DNA of 64,000 nucleotides from Thermoplasmata archaeon (GTDB taxonomy: Archaea; Thermoplasmatota; Thermoplasmata; Lutacidiplasmatales; UBA184). Position numbers and translations under genes: made by a program. Numbering within the stretch: the stretch's first letter is position 1; the number at the start of each line of letters is the position of its first letter. The notes beneath the pieces were generated by a model. That model was not told the DNA's origin. It was given only the letters and a program-made list of their open reading frames with translations, and ran no database searches. Below, piece by piece: positions 10,639-42,626 of the stretch. Location: positions 108,590 to 172,589 of the forward strand of contig DAHVCH010000001.1 in the NCBI GenBank assembly GCA_027314165.1, in the 5' to 3' direction.

Positions 10639-10785
10639 CCAGCCCGAAAGCCAGCGACGAGCGCGTGCCAGACCGACCTTCCCCCAAGGCGCTCCTAGGG
10701 CCCCGAGGGAAGGGGCGGGAGATAAGCTCGTTGCACACCCGAACCTTCCGGCGCCCCCCGCCGCGGGAAGGTCTCGGGGCAGGGC

Positions 10786-12147: not shown

Positions 12148-12177
12148 GAGCGCTGGAGCACTCGAGGGAAGATGTAC

Positions 12178-15723: not shown

Positions 15724-16335
15724 CTATCCTCTCTCGATCAGACGGCGGCAGCCGGACAGGAAGCTCGTCGCGACCAGGTTCGCCTCGACCTGGGCCCGCT
15801 GGAACTCCTGCGGATAGCGAGGGTGGGCTCCGGGCTCCGGGACGTAGACGGTGGTCAAGCCGAGCCGCGTCCCCGCCTCCACGTCGAGCATCCGATCCCC
15901 GATGATCGCGGAGGTGCGCAGGTCGATGTGGAGCTCCCGGGCGGCCTGCTCGAAGAGGGCGGTCCCCGGCTTGCGGCAGGCGCAGCCCTCCTGAGGGGCG
16001 TGGGGGCAGTAGTAGAACGCGTCGATACGGGTGCCGGCTTCCGCCATGAGCCTCTGGATCTTCTGGTGGATCGCCTCGACCGCTTCGCGCGTGTAGAACC
16101 CCCGGGAGATCCCGGACTGGTTCGTGACCACGACGACCAGGAAACCGTGGGCCCGCAGGAGGGCGACGCCCTCCCGCACCCCAAGATGGAGCTCCACCTT
16201 CTCCGGGCCTTGGAGATAGTGCGTGTCCACGTTGAGCGTGCCGTCACGGTCCACGAAGACCGCCCGCCGGAGCGGGGGCGTGGCGGAGGAGGGCCGGTGC
16301 CCCGGCCCGTCCTCGCGCTCAGGTGCTGATGACAC
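15724..16335 (-). CDS. gmhB: HAD-IIIA family phosphatase (GmhB / histidinol-phosphatase-like)
   Basis: Has HAD motif I VFVDRDGTLN, motif II VVVVTNQSG and the Zn-binding CxC insert (CPHAPQEGCACRKP) typical of D,D-heptose-1,7-bisphosphate phosphatase-like enzymes. Confidence 0.7.
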   Translation of the reverse strand: MSSAPEREDGPGHRPSSATPPLRRAVFVDRDGTLNVDTHYLQGPEKVELHLGVREGVALLRAHGFLVVVVTNQSGISRGFYTREAVEAIHQKIQRLMAEAGTRIDAFYYCPHAPQEGCACRKPGTALFEQAARELHIDLRTSAIIGDRMLDVEAGTRLGLTTVYVPEPGAHPRYPQEFQRAQVEANLVATSFLSGCRRLIERG

Positions 16336-17053
16336 GGGCGATGCGGAAGTTACCCTTCTCCAGCAGGAGGGAGTAAAGGTTCGACGAGTGGTTGGTCGAA
16401 CGCATCTTGACCACCCGGATGCGGCGCTGGATGGTCTCCTCGTTGACCTTCGCCATCATGAGGTGGACGATGCCGTCCGAGAGGTAGTCCTCCCCGTTCG
16501 GCCCGTAGTTCTCGACGTCCCGCCGCACCTCGGAGATGAGGATGCTCGTGACGCCCAGGTCGCGGATCCACTCGAAGAAGTGGAAGAGGTCGTTCCGGGG
16601 GTTCTGGAAGTCCGACAGCGTCTCGAGGACCGGGAGCGAGTCCAGGATCAGCAGGTCGTATCCCTGGCTGTCCTTCATGTTCCGGGAGTACATCTTCAGG
16701 ACCTCGATCCAGGACTTGTTCCCGAGGACGTTCAGGTTCTTCCGGATGAGCCCGATGTCCACGATCGAGAGCTTGTCGCCCACGGCTTCGAGCTTCATGC
16801 CCACGCTCTCCATGTTCTGGATGAGGCTCTCGCGGGACTGTTCCATCGTGATGTAGAGCCCCTTCTTGCCCTCCTTGAGCGCGTTCTCGTAGGCCATGTG
16901 GAAGGCCACGGTGCTCTTCATCGTGCCTGGCTCACCGGCGAGCAGCACGACGTGACCGGACGGTATGCCCCCCTCCATCTTCTCGTCGAGTCCCTCCACG
17001 TACGTCCGGATGCGCGGGACCTTCGATCCTGCGGTGGGCCCTGGGCTCATGGT
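16319..17053 (-). CDS. KaiC/RecA-superfamily ATPase (FlaH/KaiC-like single domain)
   Basis: Has Walker A LLAGEPGTMKST and Walker B LLILDSLPVLE with a KaiC-like layout. Local GC (~60%) and K/N/I-rich composition differ from the flanking DNA. A TCTTTAAGG TATA-like element lies ~45 nt upstream on the minus strand. Confidence 0.7.
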   Translation of the reverse strand, partial: TMSPGPTAGSKVPRIRTYVEGLDEKMEGGIPSGHVVLLAGEPGTMKSTVAFHMAYENALKEGKKGLYITMEQSRESLIQNMESVGMKLEAVGDKLSIVDIGLIRKNLNVLGNKSWIEVLKMYSRNMKDSQGYDLLILDSLPVLETLSDFQNPRNDLFHFFEWIRDLGVTSILISEVRRDVENYGPNGEDYLSDGIVHLMMAKVNEETIQRRIRVVKMRSTNHSSNLYSLLLEKGNFRIARVIST

Positions 17054-17210
17054 GCTACCTTCCCCCTGTTCTCTGAGGTGAGAAATCCTCGGGCTCCCCA
17101 TTGGGGTTGAACCTTAAAGATGTCGGTGCGGGCGCCCGCCGACCGCACCGGAGCGCCCCCCACTCCCCCCACGGGGGGCCAGCGGCGCGGACCCCCCTGC
17201 CCCCCATGCT

Positions 17211-17810
17211 TCAGCGCGGGGCGGACGGCCGGGGTCGGGGCTTGCCACGACGTCGGGAGCTCGTTCGCCCTCGGCGGGGACCTCCGCGCCCCCTCGCACC
17301 CCCACCCCGCAGGGCCAGGGCCTCCCGCAGGATCCGAGCGTGATCGGCGGCGAAGCGGGGCAGGGCGTCGAGCGGGAACCACTGGGCCTCGGCCGCGTCG
17401 TCCCCTCCCAGTACCTTCCCGCTCACCCGCCGAACGTGAAAGGCGATGGTCACGATGTGGCCACGCGGGTCTCGAGACGGGTCGGAGTAGACCCCCGACA
17501 GGCCTTCCACGACGGTCCGCAGCCCCGTCTCCTCCTCCACCTCGCGGACCACCGCCGACTCGCAGCTCTCGCCGATCTCGACGAAGCCTCCCGGAAGGGC
17601 CCACATGCCCTGCCAGGGAGGACGACCACGTCGGACCAGGAGGACCCTCCCGCGGGCGATGAGCACCCCATCGACCGTGAGAGCGGGCGTTTCGAGGGGC
17701 CGCAGATGGAGGTACGGGGACCCGGGGTACGGACGAAGGTACCCTCGTGGCCCGGTGGGCCCCTTCGCCCGCCGGCGAGCGACCCAGGGCGCGAGGGGGG
17801 TCCTCCCCAC
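17211..17810 (-). CDS. NUDIX hydrolase
   Basis: Has the Nudix box GGFVEIGESCESAVVREVEEETGL (Gx5Ex7REUxEExGU). The upstream part of ORF 17211..18056 is low-complexity, so the start is placed at an in-frame GTG near 17810 and is uncertain. Confidence 0.65.
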   Translation of the reverse strand: MGRTPLAPWVARRRAKGPTGPRGYLRPYPGSPYLHLRPLETPALTVDGVLIARGRVLLVRRGRPPWQGMWALPGGFVEIGESCESAVVREVEEETGLRTVVEGLSGVYSDPSRDPRGHIVTIAFHVRRVSGKVLGGDDAAEAQWFPLDALPRFAADHARILREALALRGGGARGRGGPRRGRTSSRRRGKPRPRPSAPR

Positions 17811-17869
17811 CCTTGGGACCTTTGAGGACCGAGGCGCCCTAGCGGCCCTAGAGCTCTTCCGCTTAGGGG

Positions 17870-18901
17870 GTGATGACAAGCAACCCCCAGGCGACGGAGA
17901 GGACGATGAGCCCGACCACGATCCAAGGGACCCATCTTCCCCAGCCTCCCGCGCCGCGACCCCACGAAGGCGCGCCGGCCGAGCGACCCGCCGGACCCAG
18001 GACCTCCTCGTCCGGCACCTCAGGGACCAAACTTCGCGCCATCGCGGGGGAGGCATCCGCCGCGCCTACTCAAGGTTCTGGGGAGCGTGGCCCGCGGGAG
18101 GGCCGGGCCAGTTCGCGACTCCCGGACGCGCTCCTCGCCGACCTTGGCCAGTGGACGACGGCCTCCCTGGAGCGCGCGGTGGCGGGAGCCTCCAGCGTGT
18201 CCGTGCTCTTCTCCGGAGGGCTCGACTCGGCCTTGCTCGCGCACCTGCTCCGGAAGCTCCCGGCCTTTGAGGGAGGACGGGGCATGGAGCTCGCGACCAT
18301 CGGCTTGGCCGGGTCGGCCGACCTGGCCCAGGCCGCCTCCGCCGCCGAGGCCCTGGGGCTCAAGTTCCACGCCCGCACCATCTCTCCCGAACAGGTCCGG
18401 GCTGCGGCCAGATCGGTCGAGGAGACCGAGCGGACGCAGGCCGCGCAGGGTCAGCCGCTCCCGCCTCCCCCGCAGGGAATGCGTCTCGAGGTCCTGACGG
18501 GCCTGCGGCTGGCGCTCGAGGCTGCTCCCACCACCAGGGTCCTCTGTGGCCAGGGCGCGGACGAGCTTTTCCTCGGATACGCCCACTTCTTGCCGCTGCG
18601 GGGAGAGCGGTTGGAACGGAGGTACCGCGAGGACCTTTCACAATTGCAGGGGACGGACTGGCCGGCCACCCAGCGCATCGCGGCCGCCCTCGCGAAGGAC
18701 CTGCGAGCGCCCTACCTCGACCCGGAGCTGGTCCAGAAGCTCGCGGCCTTCCCGTTGGAGCGCCGCCGTCAGGGAGGGGTGCCGAAGGGGCTCCTCCGAG
18801 AGGTCGCCGCGTCCCTGGGGCTGCCGACGGAGCTCGCCCAACGCCGGAAGAAGGCCCTCCAGTACGGGAGCGGGATCCACTCCGTGCTTTCACGGGCCTG
18901 A
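17870..18901 (+). CDS. asparagine-synthase C-terminal-domain-like PP-loop ATP pyrophosphatase
   Basis: Has the PP-loop SVLFSGGLDSALLAHLL and a C-terminal region (VLCGQGADELFLGY...; YLDPELV) reminiscent of AsnB C-domain / QueC-like amidotransferase partners. The first ~70 codons are low-complexity; the real start is probably near 18090-18130. Confidence 0.5.
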   Translation: MMTSNPQATERTMSPTTIQGTHLPQPPAPRPHEGAPAERPAGPRTSSSGTSGTKLRAIAGEASAAPTQGSGERGPREGRASSRLPDALLADLGQWTTASLERAVAGASSVSVLFSGGLDSALLAHLLRKLPAFEGGRGMELATIGLAGSADLAQAASAAEALGLKFHARTISPEQVRAAARSVEETERTQAAQGQPLPPPPQGMRLEVLTGLRLALEAAPTTRVLCGQGADELFLGYAHFLPLRGERLERRYREDLSQLQGTDWPATQRIAAALAKDLRAPYLDPELVQKLAAFPLERRRQGGVPKGLLREVAASLGLPTELAQRRKKALQYGSGIHSVLSRA

Positions 18902-19035: not shown

Positions 19036-21141
19036 ATGGCCTTCGTGGCACCGTTCGACCTGGTCGGAGGGGCGCTCGTCGTTCTCGCGGCGAGCGGAGG
19101 TGCGGGACTCCTCCCCTCCGCGTCCTCCCGCAGAGCGACCGTGGGTGCGCTCTCGCTCGCACTCCTAGGCTGCCTCCTCCTCGTTTCGGTCGCGCTTGAG
19201 GTCCTGCTCGGAGGGGCGGCGGGGACCGCTACGGTGGCCCTCCCCGGGTTCCAGTCCGCGTCGGAGGCCTTGAGCCTGGCCGTCGTGCTCGGTCCGCTCC
19301 AAGGGCTGTTCCTCCTGCTCGTGGGGGCGGTCGGCGGCGCCATCACGCTCGCCTCCGTCGGCTACGTGCCGGCCTACGTCCACGAGCGGCCGGCGACGCT
19401 GGCGGGGGTCTACGGGCTCTTCGTGGGGTCCATGGCGCTGCTGGTGCTCTCGGGCACCGCCTTCCTCTTCCTCGTGGCCTGGGAGGGGATGACCCTGCTC
19501 TCCTACGTGATGGTGGTGCACGAGCACGGTTCCTGGGACGTCCGACGCGCCGGTCTCACCTACCTCGTGATGAGCCATGCGGCGGCCGCAGCCCTCCTCG
19601 CGGGGTTCGTGGTGCTCTACGTGGGCACCGGCAGCACGAACTTCGGCGCGATGAGCGCGAACGCGCGCGCCCTTCCCGAGCTCACCCGGGATGCGGTGTT
19701 CGTCGCGATGGTCCTCGGTTTCGGGACCAAGGCGGGGGTCGTGCCCCTGCACGTGTGGCTACCGGAGGCGCATCCCGCGGCTCCGAGCAACGTCTCCTCG
19801 ATCATGTCGGGGGTCATGATCAAGATGGGCGTCTTCGGGCTCCTGCTCGTCGTCTTTGAGGTGCTGGGCGGGGGACCGCTGTGGTGGGGGTTCGTGCTGC
19901 TCGTCCTGGGAGCGGCCTCGGCCCTGCTGGGGGTGCTGAACGCCATCGCGCAGCACGACGTGAAACGGCTGCTCGCCTTCCACTCGGTCGAGAACATCGG
20001 CATCATCTTCATGGCGCTGGGAGCGGCGCTGGTCTTCCTCTCGCTCGGATGGCCCGCGCTCGCGGCGGTCGCGCTCCTGGCCGCGATCCTCCACACCTTC
20101 AACCATGCGATGTTCAAGGGGCTCCTCTTCCTCGGGGCCGGAGCTGTCGTGGGCACGACAGGGACCCGCGACATGGAGCAGATGGGAGGCCTCGCCCGGG
20201 GCATGCCCAGGACGGCGATCGCCTTCCTCTTCGGGGCGATGGCCATCTCCGCGCTCCCGCCGCTCAACGGGTTCGTCAGCGAGTGGTTGCTCTTCCAGGC
20301 GTTCTTTGCCTCCTTCGGGACCGGCTCCTTGGCGACCGAGGTCGCCTTTACGGCGGCCGCCGGGACGCTCGCGCTCGCGAGCGGGCTCGCCGCCTACTGC
20401 TTCGTCAAGGCGTTCGGAGTGATCTTCCTCGCCCGCCCGAGGTCCGAGGTCGCTCGGTCGGTGCGTTCGGACGCGCCGGCCGCGATGCAGGTCGGGATGG
20501 TCGCTCTCGCCGGCGCGTGCGTCACGGTCGGGGTCTTCCCCGTCCTTCTCCTCAGCACGTTCGCCGGGACCGTCCGCACGCTCACGGGCGCCTCCTACGC
20601 CACGTCGCCCTGGGCGTGGGGCGCGCCTCTCGCGTTCCCTTCGGTCTCAGGGGCCGCGACACCCAGCGTCCCGCCCCACGGTAGCCTCGCCATCGGCGTG
20701 GTGGCGCTCCTGCTCATGGTCGTGCTCCTGGCCGCCATGGTCCTTCGCCGGGCCACCTCGAACGGCAGCCCCTCGCGCCGGCCGATGTGGGACTGCGGGA
20801 TGGACGCCCCCACCCCGAGGATGGAGTACACGGCGAGCGGCTATGCCCAGCCCATCCTCCGGCTGTTCTCCGTGTTCTACGGGGCGCACCCGGTCTCCGA
20901 GCTAGGGGACCTGGGAGGCGCGAGACCGGGGGTCCTCCAGAAGACCGTCCGGCACGAGTCGGAGGTGGACTATCCGCTGATGGAGCAGGTCTACTCCCCG
21001 ATCGTCCGGCTCCTGCGCGAGCTCGCCCGCCGGGTGAGCCGACTCCAATCCGGAGGGATCCATGCCTACCTCGCCTACATGGTGCTGACCCTGGTGGTCC
21101 TCCTCGTCGCGTCGAGGCTCTTCGGAGGGGTCCTTCCGTGA
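19036..21141 (+). CDS. Ehr/Hyf-type complex antiporter-like subunit (NuoL/HyfB/MnhA family)
   Basis: About 700 aa with ~20 TM helices and the conserved proton-pump motifs (WLPEAHPAAPSNVSS, GTKAGVVPLHVWLP). It is the first gene of a tightly packed six-gene cluster. Confidence 0.8.
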   Translation: MAFVAPFDLVGGALVVLAASGGAGLLPSASSRRATVGALSLALLGCLLLVSVALEVLLGGAAGTATVALPGFQSASEALSLAVVLGPLQGLFLLLVGAVGGAITLASVGYVPAYVHERPATLAGVYGLFVGSMALLVLSGTAFLFLVAWEGMTLLSYVMVVHEHGSWDVRRAGLTYLVMSHAAAAALLAGFVVLYVGTGSTNFGAMSANARALPELTRDAVFVAMVLGFGTKAGVVPLHVWLPEAHPAAPSNVSSIMSGVMIKMGVFGLLLVVFEVLGGGPLWWGFVLLVLGAASALLGVLNAIAQHDVKRLLAFHSVENIGIIFMALGAALVFLSLGWPALAAVALLAAILHTFNHAMFKGLLFLGAGAVVGTTGTRDMEQMGGLARGMPRTAIAFLFGAMAISALPPLNGFVSEWLLFQAFFASFGTGSLATEVAFTAAAGTLALASGLAAYCFVKAFGVIFLARPRSEVARSVRSDAPAAMQVGMVALAGACVTVGVFPVLLLSTFAGTVRTLTGASYATSPWAWGAPLAFPSVSGAATPSVPPHGSLAIGVVALLLMVVLLAAMVLRRATSNGSPSRRPMWDCGMDAPTPRMEYTASGYAQPILRLFSVFYGAHPVSELGDLGGARPGVLQKTVRHESEVDYPLMEQVYSPIVRLLRELARRVSRLQSGGIHAYLAYMVLTLVVLLVASRLFGGVLP

Positions 21142-22106
21142 CCGCCCCCGCTCCCTGGGTGCAGTTCCTCCTGCTCGTCTTCGAGCTCGCGCTCGTGCTC
21201 GGTATCAGTCCAATGCTCGTGGGCATCATGAGGCGCGTGAAGGCCAGGAGCCAACGACGCCTGGGACCCCCGTTGCTGCAGCCCTACCGGGACCTGCGGA
21301 AGCTCTTCAGAAAGGACCGCATCTACGCGGAGAGCGCGAGCACGCTCACCCCCTACGCCCCCTGGGTCTCGTTCGTTGCCCTCGTCTCGGCGGTCCCCTT
21401 CCTCCCGTGGTTCTTCGTGCCCGCTCCCCTCGGGTTCGCGGGCGACCTGATCGTCGTGGTGGGGCTCCTCGCCCTCTCCCGGTTCATGACCGCGCTCGCG
21501 GCGCTGGACGCGGGGAGCACGTTCGGCGGGATGGGTTCGACGCGTGACATGTGGATCGGGGCCCTCGCCGAACCGACCTTCCTCCTCGTCATCTTCGCCT
21601 GGGGGGCCCCCTCGGGCTCGACGCAGGCCTCCGTCATCGTGGAACACGGGCTCTCGCTCGGCCTCGCCCACCTGAGCCCGGCGCTGCTCCTCGCCTCCAC
21701 GGCCTTCGGGGTGCTCCTCCTCGCCGAGACCGGGCGGCTGCCGGTCGACAACCCCGCCACGCACCTCGAGCTCACGATGGTGCACGAGGCGATGGTCCTG
21801 GAGTACACCGGCCAGGACCTGGCCGTCATCGAGTGGGGCAAGGGGATCAAGTTCGTCCTGCTCGCAGGGCTCCTCACGGCCGTCCTGCTCCCCTGGGGCA
21901 TCGCCACCGCGCTCGGGGCCGGGGCCCTGGCCCTTGGCGTGGGGCTCCTTCTGGTGAAGCTCTCGTCGACCGCCTGGCTGGTCGGGCACCTCGAGACGCG
22001 CGTCGCGAAGTGGCGGCTCTTCCGTGTGGCCGACCTCTCGACGCTCGCGGTCGCCTTGGCCCTGGGCTCCATCGCGCTCACCTATCTCGTGGGGGTCGGC
22101 TCGTGA
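21138..22106 (+). CDS. Ehr/Hyf-type complex membrane subunit (NuoH/HycD family)
   Basis: The GTG at 21138 overlaps the preceding stop (GTGA). The N-terminus VQFLLLVFELALVLGISPMLVGIMRRVKARSQRRLGPPLLQPYRDLRKLFRKD carries the NuoH/HycD signature (ARxQxRxGP...QxxxDxxKLxxKE). Confidence 0.75.
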   Translation: MTAPAPWVQFLLLVFELALVLGISPMLVGIMRRVKARSQRRLGPPLLQPYRDLRKLFRKDRIYAESASTLTPYAPWVSFVALVSAVPFLPWFFVPAPLGFAGDLIVVVGLLALSRFMTALAALDAGSTFGGMGSTRDMWIGALAEPTFLLVIFAWGAPSGSTQASVIVEHGLSLGLAHLSPALLLASTAFGVLLLAETGRLPVDNPATHLELTMVHEAMVLEYTGQDLAVIEWGKGIKFVLLAGLLTAVLLPWGIATALGAGALALGVGLLLVKLSSTAWLVGHLETRVAKWRLFRVADLSTLAVALALGSIALTYLVGVGS

Positions 22107-22759
22107 CCTCCGACGGACTGCTGCTGCTCGAGATCGCCGCCTCGGTGGTCCTCGTCACCGCCTGGATCGCGCTCGTCCACCGGCGGCTGGACGCCCAGGT
22201 CCGGCTCTACGCGATCCAGTCGCTCGCTCTGGCGGTCATCTCGGGACTCGTGGCCTACCTCTACTCCGCGCCGCTGCTCTACCTGACGGGCGCCCTCTTC
22301 GCCGCGCTGAACGGCGCGCTCCTGCCCTGGATCCTGCTCACGGTCCGACGGGAGCTCCGCATCCCGCCGGAGGCGAACATGCTCGTCTCCGTCCGGGGGA
22401 GCGCGCTGGCCGGGCTGGGGTGCCTCCTCCTCGCCGTGGCCGTCGTGGGGCCCCTCACCCCGCTTGCCGCGGTCCCCGCGGCCGGCCTCCTCCCGATCTC
22501 CGTCACGGTGGTCTTGGTCGGGCTCTTCGTGACCGTCTCCCGACGCAAGGCCTTCTCCCAGGTGCTCGGGATCCTGGTGATGGAGAACGGGGTCTTTCTC
22601 GCCGGCCTGGCGCTCACCTACGGGCTTGGCATCCTCTTGGAGCTGGGCATCGCCGCGAACCTGCTCGTGCTCGCGATCGTGAGCCGGCTCTTCCTGCACC
22701 GGATGAAGGACTCCTTCGACTCGCTGGACGCGGACGTCCTCCGCTCCCTGGAGGGGTGA
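22103..22759 (+). CDS. Ehr/Hyf-type complex small membrane subunit (HyfE/NuoK-like)
   Basis: The GTG at 22103 overlaps the upstream stop. It is 218 aa with 6 TM helices, and its position and size match HyfE/EhrC-like subunits. Confidence 0.65.
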   Translation: MTSDGLLLLEIAASVVLVTAWIALVHRRLDAQVRLYAIQSLALAVISGLVAYLYSAPLLYLTGALFAALNGALLPWILLTVRRELRIPPEANMLVSVRGSALAGLGCLLLAVAVVGPLTPLAAVPAAGLLPISVTVVLVGLFVTVSRRKAFSQVLGILVMENGVFLAGLALTYGLGILLELGIAANLLVLAIVSRLFLHRMKDSFDSLDADVLRSLEG

Positions 22760-22766
22760 GAGGAAG

Positions 22767-24245
22767 ATGCCGCTGGAATGGACCGTCGTCCTCCTGCTGG
22801 TCCCCGCGGCCTGCGCCGGACTGGTCGAGGTCGTGCCGGGTCGGTCGGCGGTGAACGCGGTCGCGATCGCCGGGGCCCTGGGCTCCCTCATCGCGGTCCT
22901 GGCGATCGTCCAGCAGGTGCTCCTTCAGGGGACTGCGACGACCCCGATGGACGCGCTCTACGTCGACGCGCTCTCGGCGGTGCTCCTCCTCCTCTTGAGC
23001 GTCGTGGGGCTCGCCTCGGTCCTGTACTCGGTGGACTACCTGGGGCGCGAAGGGAGCCCGCACTCGCTGTCGCTCCCGCAGCTCCGGAGGTACCACGCGT
23101 TCGTCCTCCTCTTCCTGTTCACGATGTTCCTGGTGGGCGAGGCGAACAACCTAGGGCTCCTCTGGATCGCCCTGGAGGGAACGACCCTGGTCTCGGCGCT
23201 CCTGGTGGGCTTCTACCACACCCGGAAGTCCATCGAGGCGTCCTGGAAGTACCTCGTCCTCTGCACCGTCGGACTGGTCTTCGCGCTCTTCGGAACGCTC
23301 CTGCTCTACCTCGCCTCGGCCACCGCGAGCGGGAGCGCGGGGGCTTCGCTCGATTGGACGGCCTTGATCCAGATCGCCCCCAAGTTCGACCCAGGGCTGG
23401 TCCGGCTCGCGCTCGTCTTCCTCTTCGTGGGATACGGGACGAAAGCGGGTTTCGCACCGCTGCACACCTGGCTGCCCGATGCCCACTCCGAGGCCCCCAC
23501 ACCGGTCTCGGCGCTGCTCTCCGCCGGCCTCCTCAAGTGCGCCATCTACGCGCTGCTGCGGGTGGACGCGATCACGCTCCGGATGCCCGGGTTCACTTTC
23601 GCGACGTGGCTCTTCCTGGGCTTCGGGGTCGTCTCCGTGCTGCTCGCGGCCCTCTTCATCCTGGTGCAACGGGACCTCAAACGCCTCCTGGCCTACCACT
23701 CGGTCGAGCACATCGGGATCATCTCGATCGGCATCGGGTTCGGGGGGCCGCTCGGGCTCTTCGGAGCGATCTTCCACATGGTCAACCACGCCGCCACCAA
23801 GGCGGCCCTGTTCCTTGCGGGAGGCGACCTGGCCGTGGCCGCGCGGACGAAGGACCTCGACGAGATCTCCGGGGCGCTGACCGCGATCCCCGCCACCGGG
23901 ACGGTCCTGCTGATCGGCGGGCTTGCCCTCGCCGGGGTCCCACCCTTCTCGATCTTCGCGAGCGAGTTCCTGATCGTCTCCTCGGGCTTCCAGGCCGGCG
24001 ACTGGGTCGTGGCCGTGATCCTGCTGGTCGCCCTGGCCATCGTCTTCGGAGGGCTGCTGCTCCACCTGACGAGCGCGCTGTTCGGACCGAAGCCCCGTCA
24101 AGGGTTCCCCGGGATCCGCGCCCGGGTGGTGGGGACCGCGCTCGCCATCGGACTGCTCCTCCCGCTCGTGGTCGGGCTGGGCTTGCTGCTCCCCAACCCC
24201 CTCGCGACGCTCCTCCACGATGCGGTCAGGGTGGTGATGGGATGA
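22767..24245 (+). CDS. Ehr/Hyf-type complex antiporter-like subunit (NuoN/NuoM/HyfF family)
   Basis: 492 aa with 14 TM helices and motifs GTKAGFAPLHTWLPDAHSEAPTPVSALLSA, typical of NuoM/N-type subunits. Confidence 0.8.
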   Translation: MPLEWTVVLLLVPAACAGLVEVVPGRSAVNAVAIAGALGSLIAVLAIVQQVLLQGTATTPMDALYVDALSAVLLLLLSVVGLASVLYSVDYLGREGSPHSLSLPQLRRYHAFVLLFLFTMFLVGEANNLGLLWIALEGTTLVSALLVGFYHTRKSIEASWKYLVLCTVGLVFALFGTLLLYLASATASGSAGASLDWTALIQIAPKFDPGLVRLALVFLFVGYGTKAGFAPLHTWLPDAHSEAPTPVSALLSAGLLKCAIYALLRVDAITLRMPGFTFATWLFLGFGVVSVLLAALFILVQRDLKRLLAYHSVEHIGIISIGIGFGGPLGLFGAIFHMVNHAATKAALFLAGGDLAVAARTKDLDEISGALTAIPATGTVLLIGGLALAGVPPFSIFASEFLIVSSGFQAGDWVVAVILLVALAIVFGGLLLHLTSALFGPKPRQGFPGIRARVVGTALAIGLLLPLVVGLGLLLPNPLATLLHDAVRVVMG

Positions 24246-25915
24246 GCGCGGGCGCACCGGACCACGGGTCGGAGGCCCCCCTCCTGTCTGCGACGCGGTC
24301 CCAGGGCGAGCGCACGGCCCCTCCCCCTCGATCGCAGGTGGAGGTCCCCGGAGCCCGCGACGAGCGAAAGTGGGTCGCCGCGGCACGGGGTGGGCCGACC
24401 CTGGAGGAAGCTGAGGAGGGCCCGTGGGAGGTGGTCGTGGCGTTGGAGCGTTGGCGCCCCTCCGTCCTGTCGCTCGTCCATGCGCTGCGATTCCGCCTGG
24501 CGACGCTCTGGGGCGAGAACGCGCACGGCGGGGACGTCGAGGTCCACGGGATCTTCCTGGGAGGGGCCGAGTGCCGGGGCGTCCACCTCCGCGTCGACCT
24601 GCCGGGAGCGGCGCGAAAGCTGCCCTCGTTGCTGCCGGACCTGCCCACGGCCCTCTACTTCGAGCGGGAGCTCTCGGAGATGTTCGGGGTCACGATCCTC
24701 GCCTCCCCCGACACCCGTCCGCTCCTGCTCCACGAACGTCACACCGCCCCTCCGATGCTGCCCGCAGGCGGCGAACCCACGGGGGTCCGTGCCCCCTTCG
24801 GGTTCCCCCGTACGGAAGGGGAAGGGGTCTACGAGGTCCCGGTCGGGCCGGTGCATGCAGGAGTGATCGAGCCCGGCCACTTCCGCTTCCAGGTGCGAGG
24901 GGAGGAGATCCTCAACCTCGAGGTACGCCTGGGCTACGCCCACAAGGGGACGGAGAGGCTGTTCGAGGGACTCGAGCCATCTCAGGCCACGGTCCTCGCC
25001 GAGTCGATCTCGGGGGACATGTCGGTCGCGGGTGCCACCGCGTATGCGCTCGCGGTGGAGGACGTCCTCGGGGTTCCTGTCCCTCCCGCCGCGCAGACCG
25101 CCCGGGGCCTGCTGCTCGAGCTGGAACGGGCGGCGTTCCTGATGGGGGATGTCGCTGGGATCATCCTGGACGTGGGGTACGCGGCCGGGGCCGCCGAGGC
25201 CAACGTCCTTCGAGAACAAGCCTACGGCACGCTCGAGCTCCTCACCGGTTCCCGGCTCGGGCGAGGGGCCGTGGTTCCCGGAGGGCTCGCTCGGCCGGTC
25301 CCGGCGGAGGCGCGAGTGGACGTGGAGCGGTCGCTGGACGCCGTCCGGCGGGGCCTCGCCGGCCTCGTCGACCACGTCCACGACCAGCCCAGCATCATGG
25401 ACCGGCTCCGAGGAACGGGGGTCATCTCGCTCGAGGTCGCCGAAGCCCTAGGCATGGTCGGACCGGCCGCCCGGGCCAGCGGTCTCGTCAGGGACGTGCG
25501 GCGGGACCGCCCTTACGGTCCCTATGTCCACGAGCGCGTGCGCGTCCGTGTCGCCTCCCGTTCCGAAGGCGACGTGGAGGCACGGTTCGAGGTGAAGGTC
25601 GCAGAGGTCCTCGAGGCCTGCCGACTCGCGCGGCACTTCCTCGGCGAAGGGGGTCCCGCGACGGGACCCCTGATCTCCTCGCGATCGGCCCGGCCCCGCC
25701 ACGGTCTCGGCATCGTCGAGTCCCCCCGCGGGGAGTTCCTGGTGGCCCTCCGTCCTTCGGAACCGGCGAAGAAGGTGCTCGCGAGGGTCCACGTCCGCGA
25801 CCCCTCCTTCCTCAATTGGCCGGCGATCGAGTACGCCGTCCGCGGGAACATCGTCCCGGATTTCCCGCTCTGCAACAAGAGCCTGAACCTCTCGTACTCG
25901 GGGTTCGACCGATGA
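24242..25915 (+). CDS. fused NuoC/NuoD-like (HycE-like) large subunit lacking [NiFe]-binding cysteines
   Basis: The ATG overlaps the upstream stop (ATGA). It has an N-terminal NuoC-like segment (LVHALRFRLATLWGEN...) followed by a large-subunit domain GPVHAGVIEPGHFRF...RLGYAHKGTERL. The position of the hydrogenase L1 motif (ERxCGICGFxHSxAY) reads ESISGDMSVAGATAY, and the C-terminus ends ...DFPLCNKSLNLSYSGFDR instead of DPCxxC. Confidence 0.8.
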   Translation: MSAGAPDHGSEAPLLSATRSQGERTAPPPRSQVEVPGARDERKWVAAARGGPTLEEAEEGPWEVVVALERWRPSVLSLVHALRFRLATLWGENAHGGDVEVHGIFLGGAECRGVHLRVDLPGAARKLPSLLPDLPTALYFERELSEMFGVTILASPDTRPLLLHERHTAPPMLPAGGEPTGVRAPFGFPRTEGEGVYEVPVGPVHAGVIEPGHFRFQVRGEEILNLEVRLGYAHKGTERLFEGLEPSQATVLAESISGDMSVAGATAYALAVEDVLGVPVPPAAQTARGLLLELERAAFLMGDVAGIILDVGYAAGAAEANVLREQAYGTLELLTGSRLGRGAVVPGGLARPVPAEARVDVERSLDAVRRGLAGLVDHVHDQPSIMDRLRGTGVISLEVAEALGMVGPAARASGLVRDVRRDRPYGPYVHERVRVRVASRSEGDVEARFEVKVAEVLEACRLARHFLGEGGPATGPLISSRSARPRHGLGIVESPRGEFLVALRPSEPAKKVLARVHVRDPSFLNWPAIEYAVRGNIVPDFPLCNKSLNLSYSGFDR

Positions 25916-26877
25916 TCGGCGGCGGGTCACCCGGGTCGGCGACGAGCAGGGGCGAGCCGAGCGCGGATCGGGAGGCGGCCCCCTCCTCACCCTCTCGCGC
26001 CCGGTCCACCGCGTCCGCTCCTCCGCGCGAGACGACCTCCGGTATCTTCGGTCCCTGCACGACAAAGGCCTACCCTCAGGGACCCGCGGAGCTGGCGCGG
26101 ATGGGGGCGAGGACCCCGTGGCACGACCCGGGTGTCTGCGAGGGCACAGGAGCGTGCGCGCGCGCCTGTCCCACGGAGGCGATCACGATCGAGGGCACGG
26201 GGCGGGGGGCCCGTCTCCGCCTCGACTACGGGGCGTGCGTCTTCTGTCGCAAGTGCGTGGACGCCTGTCCCACCGGAGCCCTGCGGGCTGTCCGCTTCTT
26301 TGAGCTCGCCGTGCGGTCGAAGGACGACCTCGTCGCTCGGCACGTGGCCGGTGGGACCCTCGGTGCGAACCCGCCCCCGAGCCAGGACAAGGTTTCCCGG
26401 GAAGTGCGCGAGCGCATCTCCCGCCTCTTTTCCGGGTCGCTCGCCGTGCGGGCGGTGGACGCTGGCAGCTGCAACGGTTGCGAGGTGGAGGTCTCCGCGC
26501 TCTCGTGGCCCGCCTACGACGCCGAGCGGCTCGGGATCCATTTCGTGGCGTCGCCACGGCATGCGGATGCGCTGCTCGTCACCGGTCCCGTCAACCGGAA
26601 CATGCGCCTCGCCCTCCAGAAGACCCTCGATGCGACCCCCGACCCGAAGTTCCTGGTCATCGCGGGGGCCTGCGGGATCTCCGGCGGACCGTTCCGCCGC
26701 TCGAAGGAAGTGGAGGGGGGCGTCCCCCCGTCGGACCTGCCCTCGGTCTGGGTCCCCGGTTGCCCTCCGCGCCCGGAAGCTCTCCTCTACGCCTTCTGGC
26801 TCGCGCTCGGCCGGGTGGAGCAGCAGCTGAAGAACGGGGAGCTTCCCCCCAAGGTCGGGGGAAGTTCCTTGAGGTAA
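25912..26877 (+). CDS. fused 2x[4Fe-4S] ferredoxin (NuoI/HycF-like) + NuoB/HycG-like small subunit
   Basis: The ATG overlaps the upstream stop (ATGA). It has two ferredoxin motifs (CEGTGACARACP, CVFCRKCVDACP), then the small-subunit motifs GSCNGCEVE, GACGISGGPF and VPGCPPRPE, i.e. all four Cys for an N2-type cluster. Confidence 0.8.
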   Translation: MIGGGSPGSATSRGEPSADREAAPSSPSRARSTASAPPRETTSGIFGPCTTKAYPQGPAELARMGARTPWHDPGVCEGTGACARACPTEAITIEGTGRGARLRLDYGACVFCRKCVDACPTGALRAVRFFELAVRSKDDLVARHVAGGTLGANPPPSQDKVSREVRERISRLFSGSLAVRAVDAGSCNGCEVEVSALSWPAYDAERLGIHFVASPRHADALLVTGPVNRNMRLALQKTLDATPDPKFLVIAGACGISGGPFRRSKEVEGGVPPSDLPSVWVPGCPPRPEALLYAFWLALGRVEQQLKNGELPPKVGGSSLR

Positions 26878-26883
26878 GGGCTC

Positions 26884-28065
26884 TTGCCGCGTGGCGTGTC
26901 TCGCCGCTCGCCCCCACCCGCGCCTGCTCCTCACCCCGGCGCGTCCCCGCTGGACCCCCATTCCCTCGGGCTCGAGCCCATCCCGCGGGTGATCCAGAGA
27001 TCGGGGGCCTCCACGCTCGTCGTGAGCCTGCCGAAGGAGTGGATCGAGCTCGAGGGGCTCCGCGCGGGCCAGTTCGTCTCCTGGGTCCGAGAGGACGACG
27101 GGGACCTCCGACTCCACCTCCCGGGGAAGCAGGTCCTTCCGACCCAGCCTAGGACCTGCGTCATCCGGACTCCCGGCCTGCGGTCGGTCGACCAGGCCCG
27201 GCGCCTGCTGTTCTCCGCCTACGTTCTGGGCTACGACCGCGTGCGGCTCGAGGACCCCGAGGGTCTGGACGAGGAGGTGCGGGCCGGGGTCGAACGGGTC
27301 AGCCACGAGCTCCTCGGGTTCAGCCTGACGGAGGCCTCCCGGACCACGCTGGTGGCGACCAGCTTCCTCGATCCCGCCGCGCACCCGGTGGCCGAGGTGA
27401 TCTCCCGGATCGGGTACACCCTGGACGTCCTCCTCGAACGCCTCGAGATGTCGCTCGCCGACGGGAACCCCAACGCGCTTCAGAGGGTCCCCGAGGTCCG
27501 CGTCGAGGTCCGGCGGCTCCACGCCCTCGCGCTCCGGCAGCTCAACCTCGCCGCGGCGAACCCACGGCTCGCGCGGCAGCTCGGCGTGAGCCGGCCCAGT
27601 CACCTTCTGGGTACCCGGGTCGTCGCGAAGCTCCTCGACGACATCGCGGACGCGGTGGAAGCCGTGGCGGGAGAGCTCTCCCGAATCGGCCGGGCTCCGC
27701 TCTCCGCGCGTCCGGTGCTGGAACAGATCCGAGGTCGGGTCCAGTCGCTCCGGGAGCGGCTGCGGCTCGCCCTGGGCGCCTTACGCTCCGGGAGCGCCAT
27801 AGAAGCGGAGCATGTCCTGGCCGCGCGCAGGGAAGCTCTCGAACGGTTTCTCGGGACCGAGGCCAAGCTCCGACGGATGACCGGTCCCTCGAGCCTGCGG
27901 CACTCGCTGGCCCTCGCCTCCTGGTGGGTGGGGGTCGCCCGTCAGCACGCCGAGGCGGTCGCCGAGGTCGCCTTCACGCGCGCCCTGGACCGCAACCCTT
28001 CCGTCCTGGACCTTTCCTCTTCCGGAGAGAAGAGGTTCAGCGTAAGTTCCGACCCGTCCGGATAG
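26884..28065 (+). CDS. PhoU-domain regulator with N-terminal SpoVT/AbrB-like swapped-hairpin domain
   Basis: The N-terminus IQRSGASTLVVSLPKEWIELEGLRAGQFVSWVRED is AbrB/MazE-like. The remainder is helical with two PhoU-like repeats. The gene starts 7 nt after the Ehr-cluster stop. Confidence 0.5.
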   Translation: MPRGVSRRSPPPAPAPHPGASPLDPHSLGLEPIPRVIQRSGASTLVVSLPKEWIELEGLRAGQFVSWVREDDGDLRLHLPGKQVLPTQPRTCVIRTPGLRSVDQARRLLFSAYVLGYDRVRLEDPEGLDEEVRAGVERVSHELLGFSLTEASRTTLVATSFLDPAAHPVAEVISRIGYTLDVLLERLEMSLADGNPNALQRVPEVRVEVRRLHALALRQLNLAAANPRLARQLGVSRPSHLLGTRVVAKLLDDIADAVEAVAGELSRIGRAPLSARPVLEQIRGRVQSLRERLRLALGALRSGSAIEAEHVLAARREALERFLGTEAKLRRMTGPSSLRHSLALASWWVGVARQHAEAVAEVAFTRALDRNPSVLDLSSSGEKRFSVSSDPSG

Positions 28066-28933: not shown

Positions 28934-30595
28934 GTGCGCGCCGAATCGGGGACGTTCCATTGTCCAGCGCAGCACCCGGGGGGAGCTAGCCCGATGGCCG
29001 CCCCGTACCAACCCCCGCCGCCCCCTCCCTCCGATCGACCCCTCTCCGATCAGGGAAGCGCGGGTCCGCAGTCCATGCAGGGCTCCTGGGGTACGACCTC
29101 GGGGCCTACGCAGCGCCCCCGCCACGTCCTGGTGCTCGACATCTCGAAGAGCATGCTCGCTCCCCTTCCGGACCCCAGCGACCCCAGCCGGGTCCGGAGG
29201 AAGATCGAGGTCGCCCGGGCCGCGACCTACCGCATCTTCGAGACGGTCCAGTCCCAGGGAGCGATGTTCGGGCTGGTCATCTTCAACAACGTGGCCCACG
29301 TCGCGATCCCCCTCACCGAGATCCGTCCGGAGATCCGCCCCGCGCTCGACAATCTGGTGGCTCTCCTGCCCCCGAAGGGACGGTCCGCGATCTGGGACGC
29401 GCTCGCCCTGGGCGCGGACCTGCTGCGCGTAGAGGGCGGAGCGACCCACGGGAACCTCGTCCTGGTGACCGACGGGTGGGACAACATGTCGCAACGGTTC
29501 GGGGCCCCCGGCATCGACCTGCCCCCGCCCCCACCCCCGGGGTCCCCTCCGGGAACTTCCCCCCCTCCTCGCGCCGACATCCTCGCCTACCTTCTCACCC
29601 AGGGCAGCAGGCTCGGGCTCCGCATCATCGGGATCGGGAGCGGCGTCGAACGGGACAAGGGGGTCGACTCCCAGAGGATGCGCGCCTTCACGGACGCCTA
29701 CGCCGCCCGGACCCAGGCGTGGAGACTGGGCTGCACCGTCTCCTACGAGGAGGTCACGACGAGCGAGGAGCTCTTCTCCCGCATGGTCCAGGCGTTCGTC
29801 GACATCCCATTCGAGGACGCCATGGCGGTGGAGAACCTCCACCCCGACGAACTGGCAGAGGCGGCAGCCTCGGCCGCCCGGGCGCTGCGCGACTCCGACG
29901 GGAAACGCAGCGTGGTGGGCCACCTGGCTTCCGGCAAAGGTACCGGCGCCGCCGGGAGCCCCGCCCCCGGGACCCCCTCCCAGCCGGGGATGGAGGTCGA
30001 CATCCTGAGCCCGCAGGCCGGTCACTCCGCGGTGAACCTGAGGGACCGTTACGGGCCCCTGGGAGAGGTCGCGGAGGCGTACATGGCCCGCGATTGGGCC
30101 AGGGCCCAGGCCATCCTGTACCAGAAGGGAGGCCTCATCGCCCCCGTCACCCGGTTCTACTGGCAGGCGCGCGTCTACTTCGCGCAAGGAGAGAAGGGGG
30201 AGGCGGGCCGCTACCTAGCGCAAGCCTGGTCGGAGGCCGAGGCGCTACCCGTCGCGGACCGGGGCCGGGTCGTCCGCCGGCTCGCGCTGCTCCAGGCCAA
30301 GGTCACCGGCGACAGGGAGACGGAGAGCCTGGTCAGCTTCTACGACGCGGCCGAGACGAAGGCCCGGTCGCTGGGCAGCGGGCTCGGCGACAAGCTCGAA
30401 CGGATGTTCGACCGCATCCTGGCGCTGAGGGGCACCTACGCGACGGTGAAGGGAGGGGGCGCGGCCGCCCACGAGGAGCTCGTGGAGGAGATCTTCGGAC
30501 TGCTCCAGGACGCCCGCCTCGCCAACACCCAACGCGAGCCCGCCATCGACGCGTTCCTGGACTTCGTGGAGATCGCCCTCGCAGAGATGCGGTAG
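28934..30595 (+). CDS. von Willebrand factor A (vWA) domain protein with Pro-rich linker and C-terminal alpha-helical (TPR-like) domain
   Basis: Has the vWA MIDAS start HVLVLDISKSMLAP (DxSxS) with a downstream T (LVTDGWDN), a PPPPPPGSPPGTSPPPR linker and a ~250-aa helical C-terminal domain. A TATA-like TTCAAATAAT lies at 28886-28898. The start is GTG at 28934 or ATG at 28994. Confidence 0.7.
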   Translation: MRAESGTFHCPAQHPGGASPMAAPYQPPPPPPSDRPLSDQGSAGPQSMQGSWGTTSGPTQRPRHVLVLDISKSMLAPLPDPSDPSRVRRKIEVARAATYRIFETVQSQGAMFGLVIFNNVAHVAIPLTEIRPEIRPALDNLVALLPPKGRSAIWDALALGADLLRVEGGATHGNLVLVTDGWDNMSQRFGAPGIDLPPPPPPGSPPGTSPPPRADILAYLLTQGSRLGLRIIGIGSGVERDKGVDSQRMRAFTDAYAARTQAWRLGCTVSYEEVTTSEELFSRMVQAFVDIPFEDAMAVENLHPDELAEAAASAARALRDSDGKRSVVGHLASGKGTGAAGSPAPGTPSQPGMEVDILSPQAGHSAVNLRDRYGPLGEVAEAYMARDWARAQAILYQKGGLIAPVTRFYWQARVYFAQGEKGEAGRYLAQAWSEAEALPVADRGRVVRRLALLQAKVTGDRETESLVSFYDAAETKARSLGSGLGDKLERMFDRILALRGTYATVKGGGAAAHEELVEEIFGLLQDARLANTQREPAIDAFLDFVEIALAEMR

Positions 30596-30653
30596 GGTCT
30601 CGGGGGCCAAAGCATATCATGAACGTTCACGTGAGAAGAAGGAGCCCTCCAAG

Positions 30654-32033
30654 ATGAGCCCCCCCAACCCCACGAAAGGTGCGAACAAGAAGCGACCCGC
30701 CGACGCGGCCGCGGCTCCGCCGGCGCCTGCTCCCGCGCCGCCTCCCCCTGCGCGCGCGCCCGCCCCCGAGCCTGCACCGGCCCCGACCGCGCCCGGCGAA
30801 GCTCCGGTCGAGCCGGAACCCGCCATCCCGGCGCCCGTGGTCCGCAAGGTCGTCCCAGGGTCCGTTCCACCCCCGGAGAGGAGGGCCCCGCCGCCACCCC
30901 CCATCCGCCCACGAAAGGCCCCGGAGCCGGAACCGCCGGAACCTCCGCCGATCGGGGCCAAGATCGCCGTGGTCGGGATCCCCGCTTCGGGGAAGACCAC
31001 CTACTTCCGCTACCTCTCCGGTCACTTCGGGCTGAACCTGCCTCTGGTCTACGTCCCCAGCCGCTCCGGCTCGGTCATCCCCCTCTTCGGGGACATCGGG
31101 AACGAGGTGGTGATGGAGGAGACCACCTACGAGTCCGACCCCAACAATCCCGCCGCGGCGATGGACACCACGACGCGCCTCTACGTCAATCGGCCGATGG
31201 AGGACCCCACGCGGCTCTTCGTGGAGCTCGCGCAGGGACAGGAGGAGCAGGGGATCCTGACCAAGTATCCCCTTCCGACGAAGTACAACCAGTTCGTCGA
31301 GATGAAGCTCAACTTCCGGTACGGGGTCGCGGGGAACCTCGCCCAGGCGAAGCCGATGGTCCTTAGGACCGTCGACGAGGCCGGGGGGATCATCTCGGAC
31401 TACTTCACCTACGACCGCCTGTGGATCAACGCTCCTACCGAGGAGGTCCCGGTCGAGAAGTGCCGGGTCATCCCGCGCTTCGACACCTGGAAGCCCGACC
31501 GCCAGGAGCTCTGGCGACGCGGGCTCACCCTGATGGGAAGGTTCACCGTCGACGCCGACGGCATCATCCTTCTCCTCACCCCGCAGCTGGGCTCGCTCAG
31601 GGACAGCGCCCAGCAGGTGAACCTCGCGCGGGGGGTCTTCCGGTACGCGCGGCAGCGGGGCATCCCCGTGGTGATCGCGATATCGAAGGCCGACCTGCTG
31701 AAGGAGTTCTACCTCGAGGTGGAACAGGTCCTGACCAATCGCGGGTACCTCTCAGGGTTCGACAGCAACCGGTTCCTCACCGAGCGCGACGGAAGCGGGC
31801 TCGGGAGCATTCTCGCGGCCCAGGAGGGCCGCGGGTTCTCCACGAAGGAGGACGCCTACCTGGTCGCCTCGGCGATCTCCACGGGAGAGGGACGACCTCT
31901 CCTCTACGGGGACACGGCGGACGTCGACCTCAACAACGGTGCGACCGCGGGAGTGCCCGTGATGGTCAACACGACGCTCCCCCTCGCCCGGATCTGCGAG
32001 CGCGTGCTGACCGAGCGCGGCGACCTGAGCTAG
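30654..32033 (+). CDS. TRAFAC-class small-GTPase-like protein with Pro/Ala-rich N-terminal IDR and large inserted domain
   Basis: Has G1 AKIAVVGIPASGKTTY, G3 RFTVDADGII (DxxG) and G4 VVIAISKADL (NKxD-like SKAD). There is a ~110-aa PAPAPAPPPP-type N-terminal region and a ~190-aa insertion between G1 and G3. A TATA-like GCATATCA lies ~38 nt upstream of the ATG. Confidence 0.7.
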   Translation: MSPPNPTKGANKKRPADAAAAPPAPAPAPPPPARAPAPEPAPAPTAPGEAPVEPEPAIPAPVVRKVVPGSVPPPERRAPPPPPIRPRKAPEPEPPEPPPIGAKIAVVGIPASGKTTYFRYLSGHFGLNLPLVYVPSRSGSVIPLFGDIGNEVVMEETTYESDPNNPAAAMDTTTRLYVNRPMEDPTRLFVELAQGQEEQGILTKYPLPTKYNQFVEMKLNFRYGVAGNLAQAKPMVLRTVDEAGGIISDYFTYDRLWINAPTEEVPVEKCRVIPRFDTWKPDRQELWRRGLTLMGRFTVDADGIILLLTPQLGSLRDSAQQVNLARGVFRYARQRGIPVVIAISKADLLKEFYLEVEQVLTNRGYLSGFDSNRFLTERDGSGLGSILAAQEGRGFSTKEDAYLVASAISTGEGRPLLYGDTADVDLNNGATAGVPVMVNTTLPLARICERVLTERGDLS

Positions 32034-32042
32034 GGGCGGGGC

Positions 32043-42593: not shown

Positions 42594-42626
42594 CGCGGGA
42601 GAAAAGGACCGTCGGGGGCCTTCTTC

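Follow-up and report, generated by a model that had tools for sequence, protein, structure and literature searches.

The subject of this analysis is a run of six genes on one strand of a 64 kb stretch of DNA from a Thermoplasmata archaeon (GenBank assembly GCA_027314165.1, contig DAHVCH010000001.1, positions 108,590 to 172,589; 67–73% G+C), which as a whole is called the window below. The locus is confirmed as a member of the known Ehr (energy-converting or Ech hydrogenase-related) family, neither a canonical hydrogenase nor complex I. The assignment, already made in an earlier note on this DNA, holds because the locus combines a large subunit homologous to group-4 hydrogenase subunits and NuoD, devoid of CxxC pairs, with a retained set of NuoB ligands, a NuoH-like subunit and two antiporter-like subunits, and because no NuoEFG is found in the window. 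Sequence features suggest that Ehr arose from the energy-converting hydrogenase architecture of Hyf/group 4f by loss of the [NiFe] site, with the rest kept. We think it probable that the complex works as a redox-driven ion pump, with a three-cluster Fe-S wire leading to an acceptor at the former [NiFe] pocket.

The genes considered are as follows (window coordinates):

19036-21141, + strand: g1, HyfB/HycC/NuoL-type antiporter-like membrane subunit with a C-terminal extension (701 aa; hydrogenase-4 subunit B model, PF00361)
21138-22106, + strand: g2, NuoH/HycD/HyfC-like membrane subunit (322 aa; PF00146, E = 1e-33)
22103-22759, + strand: g3, HyfE-like small membrane subunit, C-terminal half NuoK-like (218 aa; NCBIfam HyfE model, E = 1e-21)
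22767-24245, + strand: g4, HyfF/NuoM/N-type antiporter-like membrane subunit (492 aa; NCBIfam HyfF model, E = 1e-138, and PF00361)
24242-25915, + strand: g5, fused NuoC-NuoD (HycE/HyfG-type) large subunit without [NiFe] ligands (557 aa; PF00329 and PF00346)
25912-26877, + strand: g6, fused HycF/NuoI-like ferredoxin domain and HycG/MbhJ/NuoB-like small subunit (321 aa; Fer4 families and PF01058)
26884-28065, + strand: g7, putative regulator with an AbrB/MazE-type domain and a PhoU-fold bundle (393 aa with a TTG start; PF04014, E = 2e-6)

The six structural genes occupy positions 19036-26877 (+), exactly where the earlier note had placed six co-directional, translationally coupled genes. Its reading of the junctions was also exact: start and stop codons overlap as GTGA at g1/g2, GTGA at g2/g3, ATGA at g4/g5 and ATGA at g5/g6; the g3/g4 junction is a 7-nt spacer preceded by a GGAGGGGTGAGAGGAAG stretch. 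Pfam and NCBIfam profile searches returned the subunit order that had been proposed (NuoL-like, NuoH/HycD-like, HyfE-like, NuoN/M-like, NuoC-NuoD, ferredoxin-NuoB). The count of six holds for the structural genes; the unit of this clade also includes a seventh linked gene, g7. The products of g1–g4 are strongly hydrophobic, those of g5–g7 soluble. Comparison with a 92–98% identical relative (contig L085) gave dN/dS (ratio of nonsynonymous to synonymous substitution rates) of 0.04–0.23 over g1–g7, with 0.12 for g1, 0.07 for g2, 0.04 for g3, and 0.08 for both g4 and g7. An identity of 92–98% also holds for the 143-kb ENA contig k141_182002 (ERZ27233565). All seven genes are intact and under purifying selection; with such values across all genes, the locus is a maintained machine rather than a relic.

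The loss of the hydrogenase site was seen in g5. Its best match among proteins of solved structure was HycE of Escherichia coli formate hydrogenlyase (7Z0S_E, 192 bits); matches to Nqo4 (111 bits) and MbsL (87 bits) were weaker. In the alignment to 7Z0S_E all four Cys ligands of HycE are replaced (C241 by S257, C244 by M260, C531 by S551 and C534 by G554), which bears out the earlier claim that the catalytic subunit cannot bind Ni-Fe. The L1 and L2 motifs read ESISGDMSVAG and NLSYSGFDR, without the Cys pairs of the group-4 patterns RxCGxCxxxH and DPCxxCxxR/H; the protein ends in ...SGFDR, and a maturation peptide is absent. The four [NiFe] Cys were likewise missing from all of the 120 best database homologues of g5 and, among the matches listed, from 78 of 80 related loci in species-representative genomes. 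Residues S257-G258-D259 and N545-K546-S547...S551-Y552-x-G554-x-D556 were invariant in an alignment of 35 g5 sequences, which covered several archaeal orders and included two bacterial sequences. An AlphaFold model of g5 (pLDDT 82.9, pTM 0.87) had HycE as its top fold match (TM 0.82/0.86), with NuoCD ranking behind. Furthermore, the quinone ligands Tyr87 and His38 of Thermus thermophilus Nqo4 correspond to Gly258 and Ile209 of g5 (ungapped phmmer alignment to 2FUG_4). As both the [NiFe] Cys and the quinone Tyr/His are replaced, the g5 site is neither hydrogenase-like nor complex-I-like in its chemistry.

A large-subunit phylogeny had been proposed in the earlier note as a check on the assignment. 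In a neighbour-joining tree (a rough distance tree with no support values, whose internal branching we did not rely on) g5 fell within a monophyletic Thermoplasmata clade with 46–92% identity. This clade adjoins an acidobacterial clade inside the radiation of Cys-less large subunits; HycE/HyfG, an Ech large subunit and NuoCD are all outside, in agreement with the assignment. The best large-subunit relative in GTDB was 45% identical, and none was a close Thermoplasmata relative, among the matches listed. Only two of the 80 loci, again among the matches listed, had intact CxxC pairs: L060 (Thermincola ferriacetica, 10001-11506) and L068 (Gemmatimonadales, 10001-11368). They carry ERICGxC and LCYSC motifs, the same gene order and a fused ferredoxin-NuoB subunit; with CxxC pairs intact, they are true group-4f-type hydrogenases. 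Since both nest among Cys-less sequences, the tree suggests that the Ni-Fe site was lost repeatedly. Bacterial and archaeal Ehr loci have the same gene order, colinear with hyfB-C-E-F-G-H-I. In Nitrospirota (L040 and L051) two Ehr-type clusters were seen in tandem on the same contig; the second Cys-less large subunit of L051 is at 11699-13300.

The electron wire is encoded in g6, where a ferredoxin domain (residues ∼50–142) precedes a NuoB-like domain (residues ∼157–316); the solved relatives were MbhJ (124 bits), HycG (123 bits) and HycF (57 bits). All four Cys of the NuoB-type cluster are kept, in GSC187NGC190, GAC254G and GC284PP (aligned with MbhJ and HycG). The earlier note had described a fused 2x[4Fe-4S] ferredoxin and NuoB: the fusion stands, the full pair of motifs does not, as the domain has seven Cys rather than eight. 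Ferredoxin motif 2, CVFCRKCVDACP (C109-x2-C-x2-C-x3-C-P), is canonical; motif 1, CEGTGACARACP (C76-x2-T-x2-C-x3-C-P; residues 76–87, window 26137-26172), has Thr in place of the second Cys. In nearly all small subunits of the clade (about 35 of 37) this position is taken by Thr, Ser, Gly, Ala, Asp or Gln, and in only one by Cys. Three Cys ligands are what a ferredoxin site with a [3Fe-4S] or labile-iron cluster classically shows, and one of the two g6 sites therefore resembles such a site. The ferredoxin cluster that is universally retained we take to be N6b, next to the NuoB cluster, from the cross-ligation of NuoI in the T. thermophilus structure. That arrangement puts the retained cluster beside the NuoB cluster, so the three-Cys site would be the distal one, a surface entry point.

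Other lineages differ in how much of the ferredoxin module they have. Fusions of ferredoxin with NuoB recur in Acidobacteria, Thaumarchaeota, Firmicutes and others, and the NuoC-NuoD fusion is the rule in HycE, HyfG and Ehr; the fused subunits are thus not peculiar to this locus. In Acidobacteria and Thaumarchaeota the sole ferredoxin cluster kept is the one formed by Cys1–3 of motif 2 and the Cys-Pro of motif 1; in Methanomassiliicoccales the ferredoxin is a separate gene; and from most Ehr clusters of proteobacteria and Nitrospira the ferredoxin is missing altogether. Retention across lineages of the cluster made by motif-2 Cys1–3 and motif-1 Cys4 fits a role as relay to the NuoB cluster. 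Models of electron entry are constrained by this pattern, in which the ferredoxin module is lost stepwise and the NuoB-adjacent cluster is kept, and by the nesting of true CxxC hydrogenases among Cys-less relatives. On one Methanomassiliicoccus sp. contig (L084, 2675-17958) the ferredoxin and NuoB genes of the Ehr cluster are separate, and the cluster directly adjoins the operon of a bona fide Ech hydrogenase (DPCICCTDR); a divergent HdrD-like gene and a rubrerythrin gene were also observed there, with a Usp gene in between.

The membrane arm combines two antiporter-like subunits with a NuoH-like and a HyfE-like one. The g1 protein matches the NCBIfam hydrogenase-4 subunit B model with 632 bits (E = 1e-189, slightly below the curated 667-bit cutoff), and its best solved relative is HycC (7Z0S_C). 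We aligned g1 and g4 with E. coli NuoL/M/N, HycC and HyfB/D/F; g1 retains E150, K232, K263, K361 and E416 in transmembrane helices 5, 7, 8, 11 and 12, respectively, and g4 retains E137, K226, K257, K345 and E400 at the same positions. Judged by these residues, both antiporter-like subunits carry the full Glu/Lys set of the complex I proton channels. In comparison with HycD, HyfC and NuoH, g2 keeps the acidic loop P(F/V)D..E.EL...EY(S/T)G, into which Ehr-type proteins insert three residues. The membrane glutamates of g3 align with those of HyfE/NuoK-type proteins; its match to PF00420 is weak.

A module that could feed electrons into the complex, or mature a metal site, was sought in the 64-kb window only. 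Searches of the window by tblastn (E<=0.01) with E. coli NuoE/F/G/I/A/J, HycB, HyfA, HycH/I and HypA-E and with Methanomassiliicoccus HdrD returned only the expected matches in g1, g4, g5 and g6. Pfam and NCBIfam scans of 36 other window open reading frames (ORFs), most but not all of those called, revealed no Fdh or FpoF-type module and no redox enzyme. Both results agree with the earlier statement that the window lacks an NADH, formate or Fpo F420 input module. Clustering of flanking ORFs over 86 loci also gave no conserved redox partner or dedicated input module; the flanking clusters were limited to regulators (OmpR, ArsR, XRE), Usp, one ABC ATPase and Ehr paralogues, and some of the top ones were Ehr subunits overlooked by span detection. 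The absence of an adjacent input module across the 86 loci fits donors and acceptors drawn from pools.

How the complex might work can be proposed from these features. A donor in the cytoplasm, for which ferredoxin reduced by 2-oxoacid oxidoreductases is the most plausible candidate, would pass electrons to the surface-exposed three-Cys cluster, and these would then travel via the second ferredoxin cluster to the NuoB-type cluster. The acceptor would sit where the [NiFe] site used to be, in a pocket at the interface of the large, small and NuoH-like subunits whose presumed lining is the S-G-D and N-K-S...S-Y-S-G residues, invariant in the family. It would be neither protons at a NiFe centre nor a quinone held in the manner of complex I. 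The change of charge there could drive translocation of H+ (or Na+) through g1–g4, as in formate hydrogenlyase (FHL), MBH and complex I.

Several points weigh against this redox-driven pump. No substrate, donor or acceptor is named by any of the results. The low-confidence stretches of the g5 model (residues 200–211 and 553–557) are the very loops expected to shape the acceptor pocket. As most bacterial Ehr clusters have no ferredoxin domain, the route of entry via ferredoxin is not family-wide; also, a distal three-Cys site could have a raised potential and then be a poor fit to a low-potential ferredoxin donor. The evidence on the genome (quinones, hyp genes, other complexes) is limited to the 64-kb window. 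Finally, Hyq is the only colinear relative with genetic data, and these were taken to show a hydrogenase activity (PMC2650096, PMC3357923).

One could speculate, in line with that interpretation, that the complex does act as a hydrogenase, one of the Hyq ‘endo-hydrogenase’ type, with H2 oxidised or evolved at a non-canonical site and electrons exchanged with membrane quinone. Deletion of hyqRBCEFGI abolished endogenous H2 recycling, and the activity was reported to be bidirectional (PMC2650096, PMC3357923). The genes hyqBCEFGI are colinear with g1–g6, minus the ferredoxin domain; eight alphaproteobacterial loci that we took as Hyq-type by taxonomy and gene order (L042, L053, L055, L065, L072, L074, L077 and L078) are in the same Cys-less radiation, among whose members the true CxxC hydrogenases L060 and L068 are nested. 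Still, the four metal-binding Cys have turned into Ser, Met, Ser and Gly, neither hyp nor hycI is present in the window, and the Tyr/His quinone ligands of complex I are absent. The Hyq authors themselves term the catalytic site speculative (PMC2650096, PMC3357923), and literature on Mycobacterium tuberculosis and on bacteria of the candidate phyla radiation (CPR) argues that such proteins cannot handle H2 (PMC6728331, PMC7304191). We consider a hydrogenase of this type very unlikely here. Another option, bolder and in our opinion improbable though worth stating, is that the former [NiFe] pocket became a new catalytic site, fed by the three-Cys/[4Fe-4S]/NuoB wire and coupling ion pumping to a chemistry new for the superfamily; if so, this chemistry would be the reduction of an acceptor other than quinone or protons, or else H2 turnover that is metal-independent or uses an alternative metal, as the Hyq genetics hint.

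The direction of flow could also be the opposite, with proton-motive force driving electrons uphill from quinol or another pool donor to ferredoxin. In principle, group-4 and complex I machines can run both ways, the channel residues of g1 and g4 are intact, and Ehr is frequent among aerobes and nitrifiers whose need for reduced ferredoxin has no obvious source (loci of Nitrospira, Methylobacter, Burkholderiaceae and Streptomyces). But g5 has no quinone-site residues, many family members have no ferredoxin domain, and none of the scanned window ORFs indicates a ferredoxin-demanding pathway; this pure inference we regard as unlikely. The complex may, alternatively, perform no net redox catalysis and be an Mrp-like cation/proton antiporter whose Fe-S arm serves as redox sensor or gate. 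Such a role would agree with the lost catalytic metal site, with the lack of a conserved partner enzyme over 86 loci, where regulators and Usp are the commonest neighbours, and with induction of one relative by acid stress; it is at odds with the three-cluster wire maintained under purifying selection and with the invariance across phyla of the SGD, NKS and SYSG pocket residues, which suggests a specific ligand or substrate and not decay. We find the antiporter quite unlikely. The chance is very slight that the locus is an ordinary complex I or Fpo-like enzyme with the input module encoded elsewhere, or a remnant of a decaying operon. Pfam and NCBIfam do label the soluble subunits by Nuo families, and the view of the genome spans 64 kb only. 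However, there are six structural genes with two antiporter-like subunits (complex I has three), no NuoA or NuoJ was detected by tblastn in the window, NuoK and NuoI are not separate, the membrane subunits score best on Hyf models, g5 is nearest to HycE both by sequence and by fold, and the quinone Tyr/His are absent. Decay of the operon was rejected on account of intact ORFs, dN/dS of 0.04–0.23 and conservation in the clade at identities as low as 46%. The redox-driven pump thus remains the reading we prefer.

The linked gene g7 starts 6 nt downstream of g6. Its product starts with an AbrB/MazE-type domain, followed by a small alpha/beta domain and, at the C-terminus, a six-helix bundle of PhoU fold; in an AF2 model (pLDDT 76.5) the bundle matches PhoU structures (1t72, TMt 0.78–0.82, prob 1.0). 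An exact-sequence look-up of g5 itself yielded no contig. The clade context was taken from four contigs found via homologues, and in all four of them homologues of g7 adjoin the Ehr cluster: downstream on the same strand in L081, L082 and L085, divergent and upstream in L083. The family is small and lineage-specific (only 14 sequence clusters in 5.8e9 proteins), and the data suggest that several of these clusters are on the same contigs as large-subunit matches. We infer that g7 is a dedicated regulator of the Ehr cluster, acting on transcription in the proposed model; the signal it senses could show when the complex is needed. An alignment of upstream regions, made in search of a shared operator or promoter, showed conservation only with the 92%-identical relative.

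The neighbours in the window are archaeal housekeeping genes (archaeal CCA-adding enzyme, NOG1-type GTPase, IF-2B family protein, KaiC/ArlH-like ATPases, FtsZ). Genes for a KaiC-family ATPase and a NUDIX hydrolase (16319-18056, − strand) adjoin the Ehr cluster; the same was observed in L083 (12969-18146), whose large subunit is 51% identical to g5, and not in L081 or L082. This adjacency may be residual synteny or a functional link. Downstream, at 28934-34640 (+), are genes for a VWA-domain protein of 553 aa, a 459-aa protein with a weak P-loop match and an 868-aa protein with no Pfam or NCBIfam match; L085 has the VWA and 459-aa genes and a third gene truncated by the contig end, in the same order downstream of its Ehr cluster. 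A 909-aa ORF at 36972-39701 (+), in a region where the coding signal is weaker, may encode a surface protein; its only Pfam match is to a Big_1 Ig-like domain, below threshold. At 41004-43994 (+) a radical-SAM protein (529 aa) is followed directly by a UbiD-family decarboxylase (447 aa), a pair that could be involved in cofactor, quinone or isoprenoid tailoring.

Ehr stands between energy-converting hydrogenases and complex I and was first noticed more than 20 years ago. Species with Ehr in their genomes run into the hundreds, both bacterial and archaeal; nitrifiers, methanotrophs, M. tuberculosis, CPR bacteria, methanogens and anaerobic methanotrophic (ANME) archaea are among them. Ehr was first noted in Geobacter and was later seen as linking group-4 hydrogenases with complex I (PMC6147122, PMC6349859, PMC4758237); the G. 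sulfurreducens ehr cluster is credited there to Coppi 2005 and Marreiros et al. 2013 (via PMC6147122, PMC6349859), and reviews up to 2023–2025 still call the function unknown (PMC10432482, PMC10284858, PMC12342949). The earlier note had stated that Ehr is known only from comparative genomics. This is not so, as Hyq genetics, Geobacter proteomics and Methylocystis transcriptomics have been published: Ehr subunits are abundant in the proteome of Geobacter grown on formate (PMC7894505), and Methylocystis ‘group 4f’ genes are up 16–20-fold at pH 5 (bioRxiv 10.1101/2025.08.29.672306). The published Methylocystis motif AARVS matches L1 of the Cys-less alphaproteobacterial loci (e.g. LAARVSGD in L065), and induction at pH 5 is consistent with a proton-handling role. 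Furthermore, M. tuberculosis Rv0081-87 is regulated as a unit and was judged not to be a hydrogenase (PMC6728331). One genome of Methanomassiliicoccales was already noted to have an Ehr cluster (PMC6147122); no description of an Ehr clade in non-methanogenic Thermoplasmata was found in the literature searched. The locus adds such a distinct archaeal clade. It does not settle the question of substrate, and it offers three handles on it: the three-cluster wire with a three-Cys distal site, the hydrogenase-like C-terminus and the AbrB-PhoU regulator.

Among known systems, the MBS/MBX complexes of Thermococcales (6U8Y) and complex I/Fpo-like enzymes resemble the locus in being modular and hydrogenase-derived or -related, with a NuoB-type cluster feeding a non-NiFe site and with antiporter-like subunits. 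They are far more distant in sequence, and the Tyr/His quinone ligands of complex I are absent here. MBS has an Mrp-type 13-subunit membrane arm, complex I at least 11 core subunits. Membership in MBS/MBX was rejected (MbsL 87 bits versus HycE 192 bits for g5). E. coli Hyf (group 4a) and the Hyc proteins of FHL-1 share with the locus the gene order, the NuoC-NuoD fusion and the fold of the large subunit (TM 0.82–0.86); in contrast to them, the locus lacks the [NiFe] Cys, HyfA/HycB, HyfD and a C-terminal maturation peptide, neither hyp nor hycI is nearby, and the counterparts of HyfH and HyfI are fused. Group 4f (Ehf; L060, L068) has the same gene order, NKS motif, C-terminal DR and fused ferredoxin-NuoB, but keeps ERICG(A/V)C and (E)LCYSC, i.e. 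intact CxxC pairs. 

Azorhizobium caulinodans Hyq is the sole Ehr relative with genetic and physiological data, and was assigned H2:quinone activity (PMC2650096, PMC3357923), an assignment that the loss of ligands in this radiation makes doubtful. Like our locus, it has a six-subunit colinear core (hyqBCEFGI), a NuoC-NuoD fusion, a NuoB-type four-Cys small subunit and an operon regulator (PMC2650096, PMC3357923); unlike it, Hyq has a small subunit (HyqI) without ferredoxin domain, a regulator of another type than AbrB-PhoU, and an aerobic bacterium as host. Closest in kind are the Ehr clusters of Geobacter, M. tuberculosis (Rv0082-Rv0087, PMC6728331), and comammox Nitrospira and ammonia-oxidizing archaea (PMC10284858, PMC10432482), with the same six-module content, a Cys-less large subunit and no NuoEFG. 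The locus differs from these in being part of a Thermoplasmata clade of its own, whose identity to other lineages does not exceed about 48%; in its L1 motif, ES(I/V)SGD...AG versus ER(I/V)SGD...AH, and its hydrogenase-like C-terminal DR; and in having a fused seven-Cys ferredoxin domain and a linked AbrB-PhoU gene.

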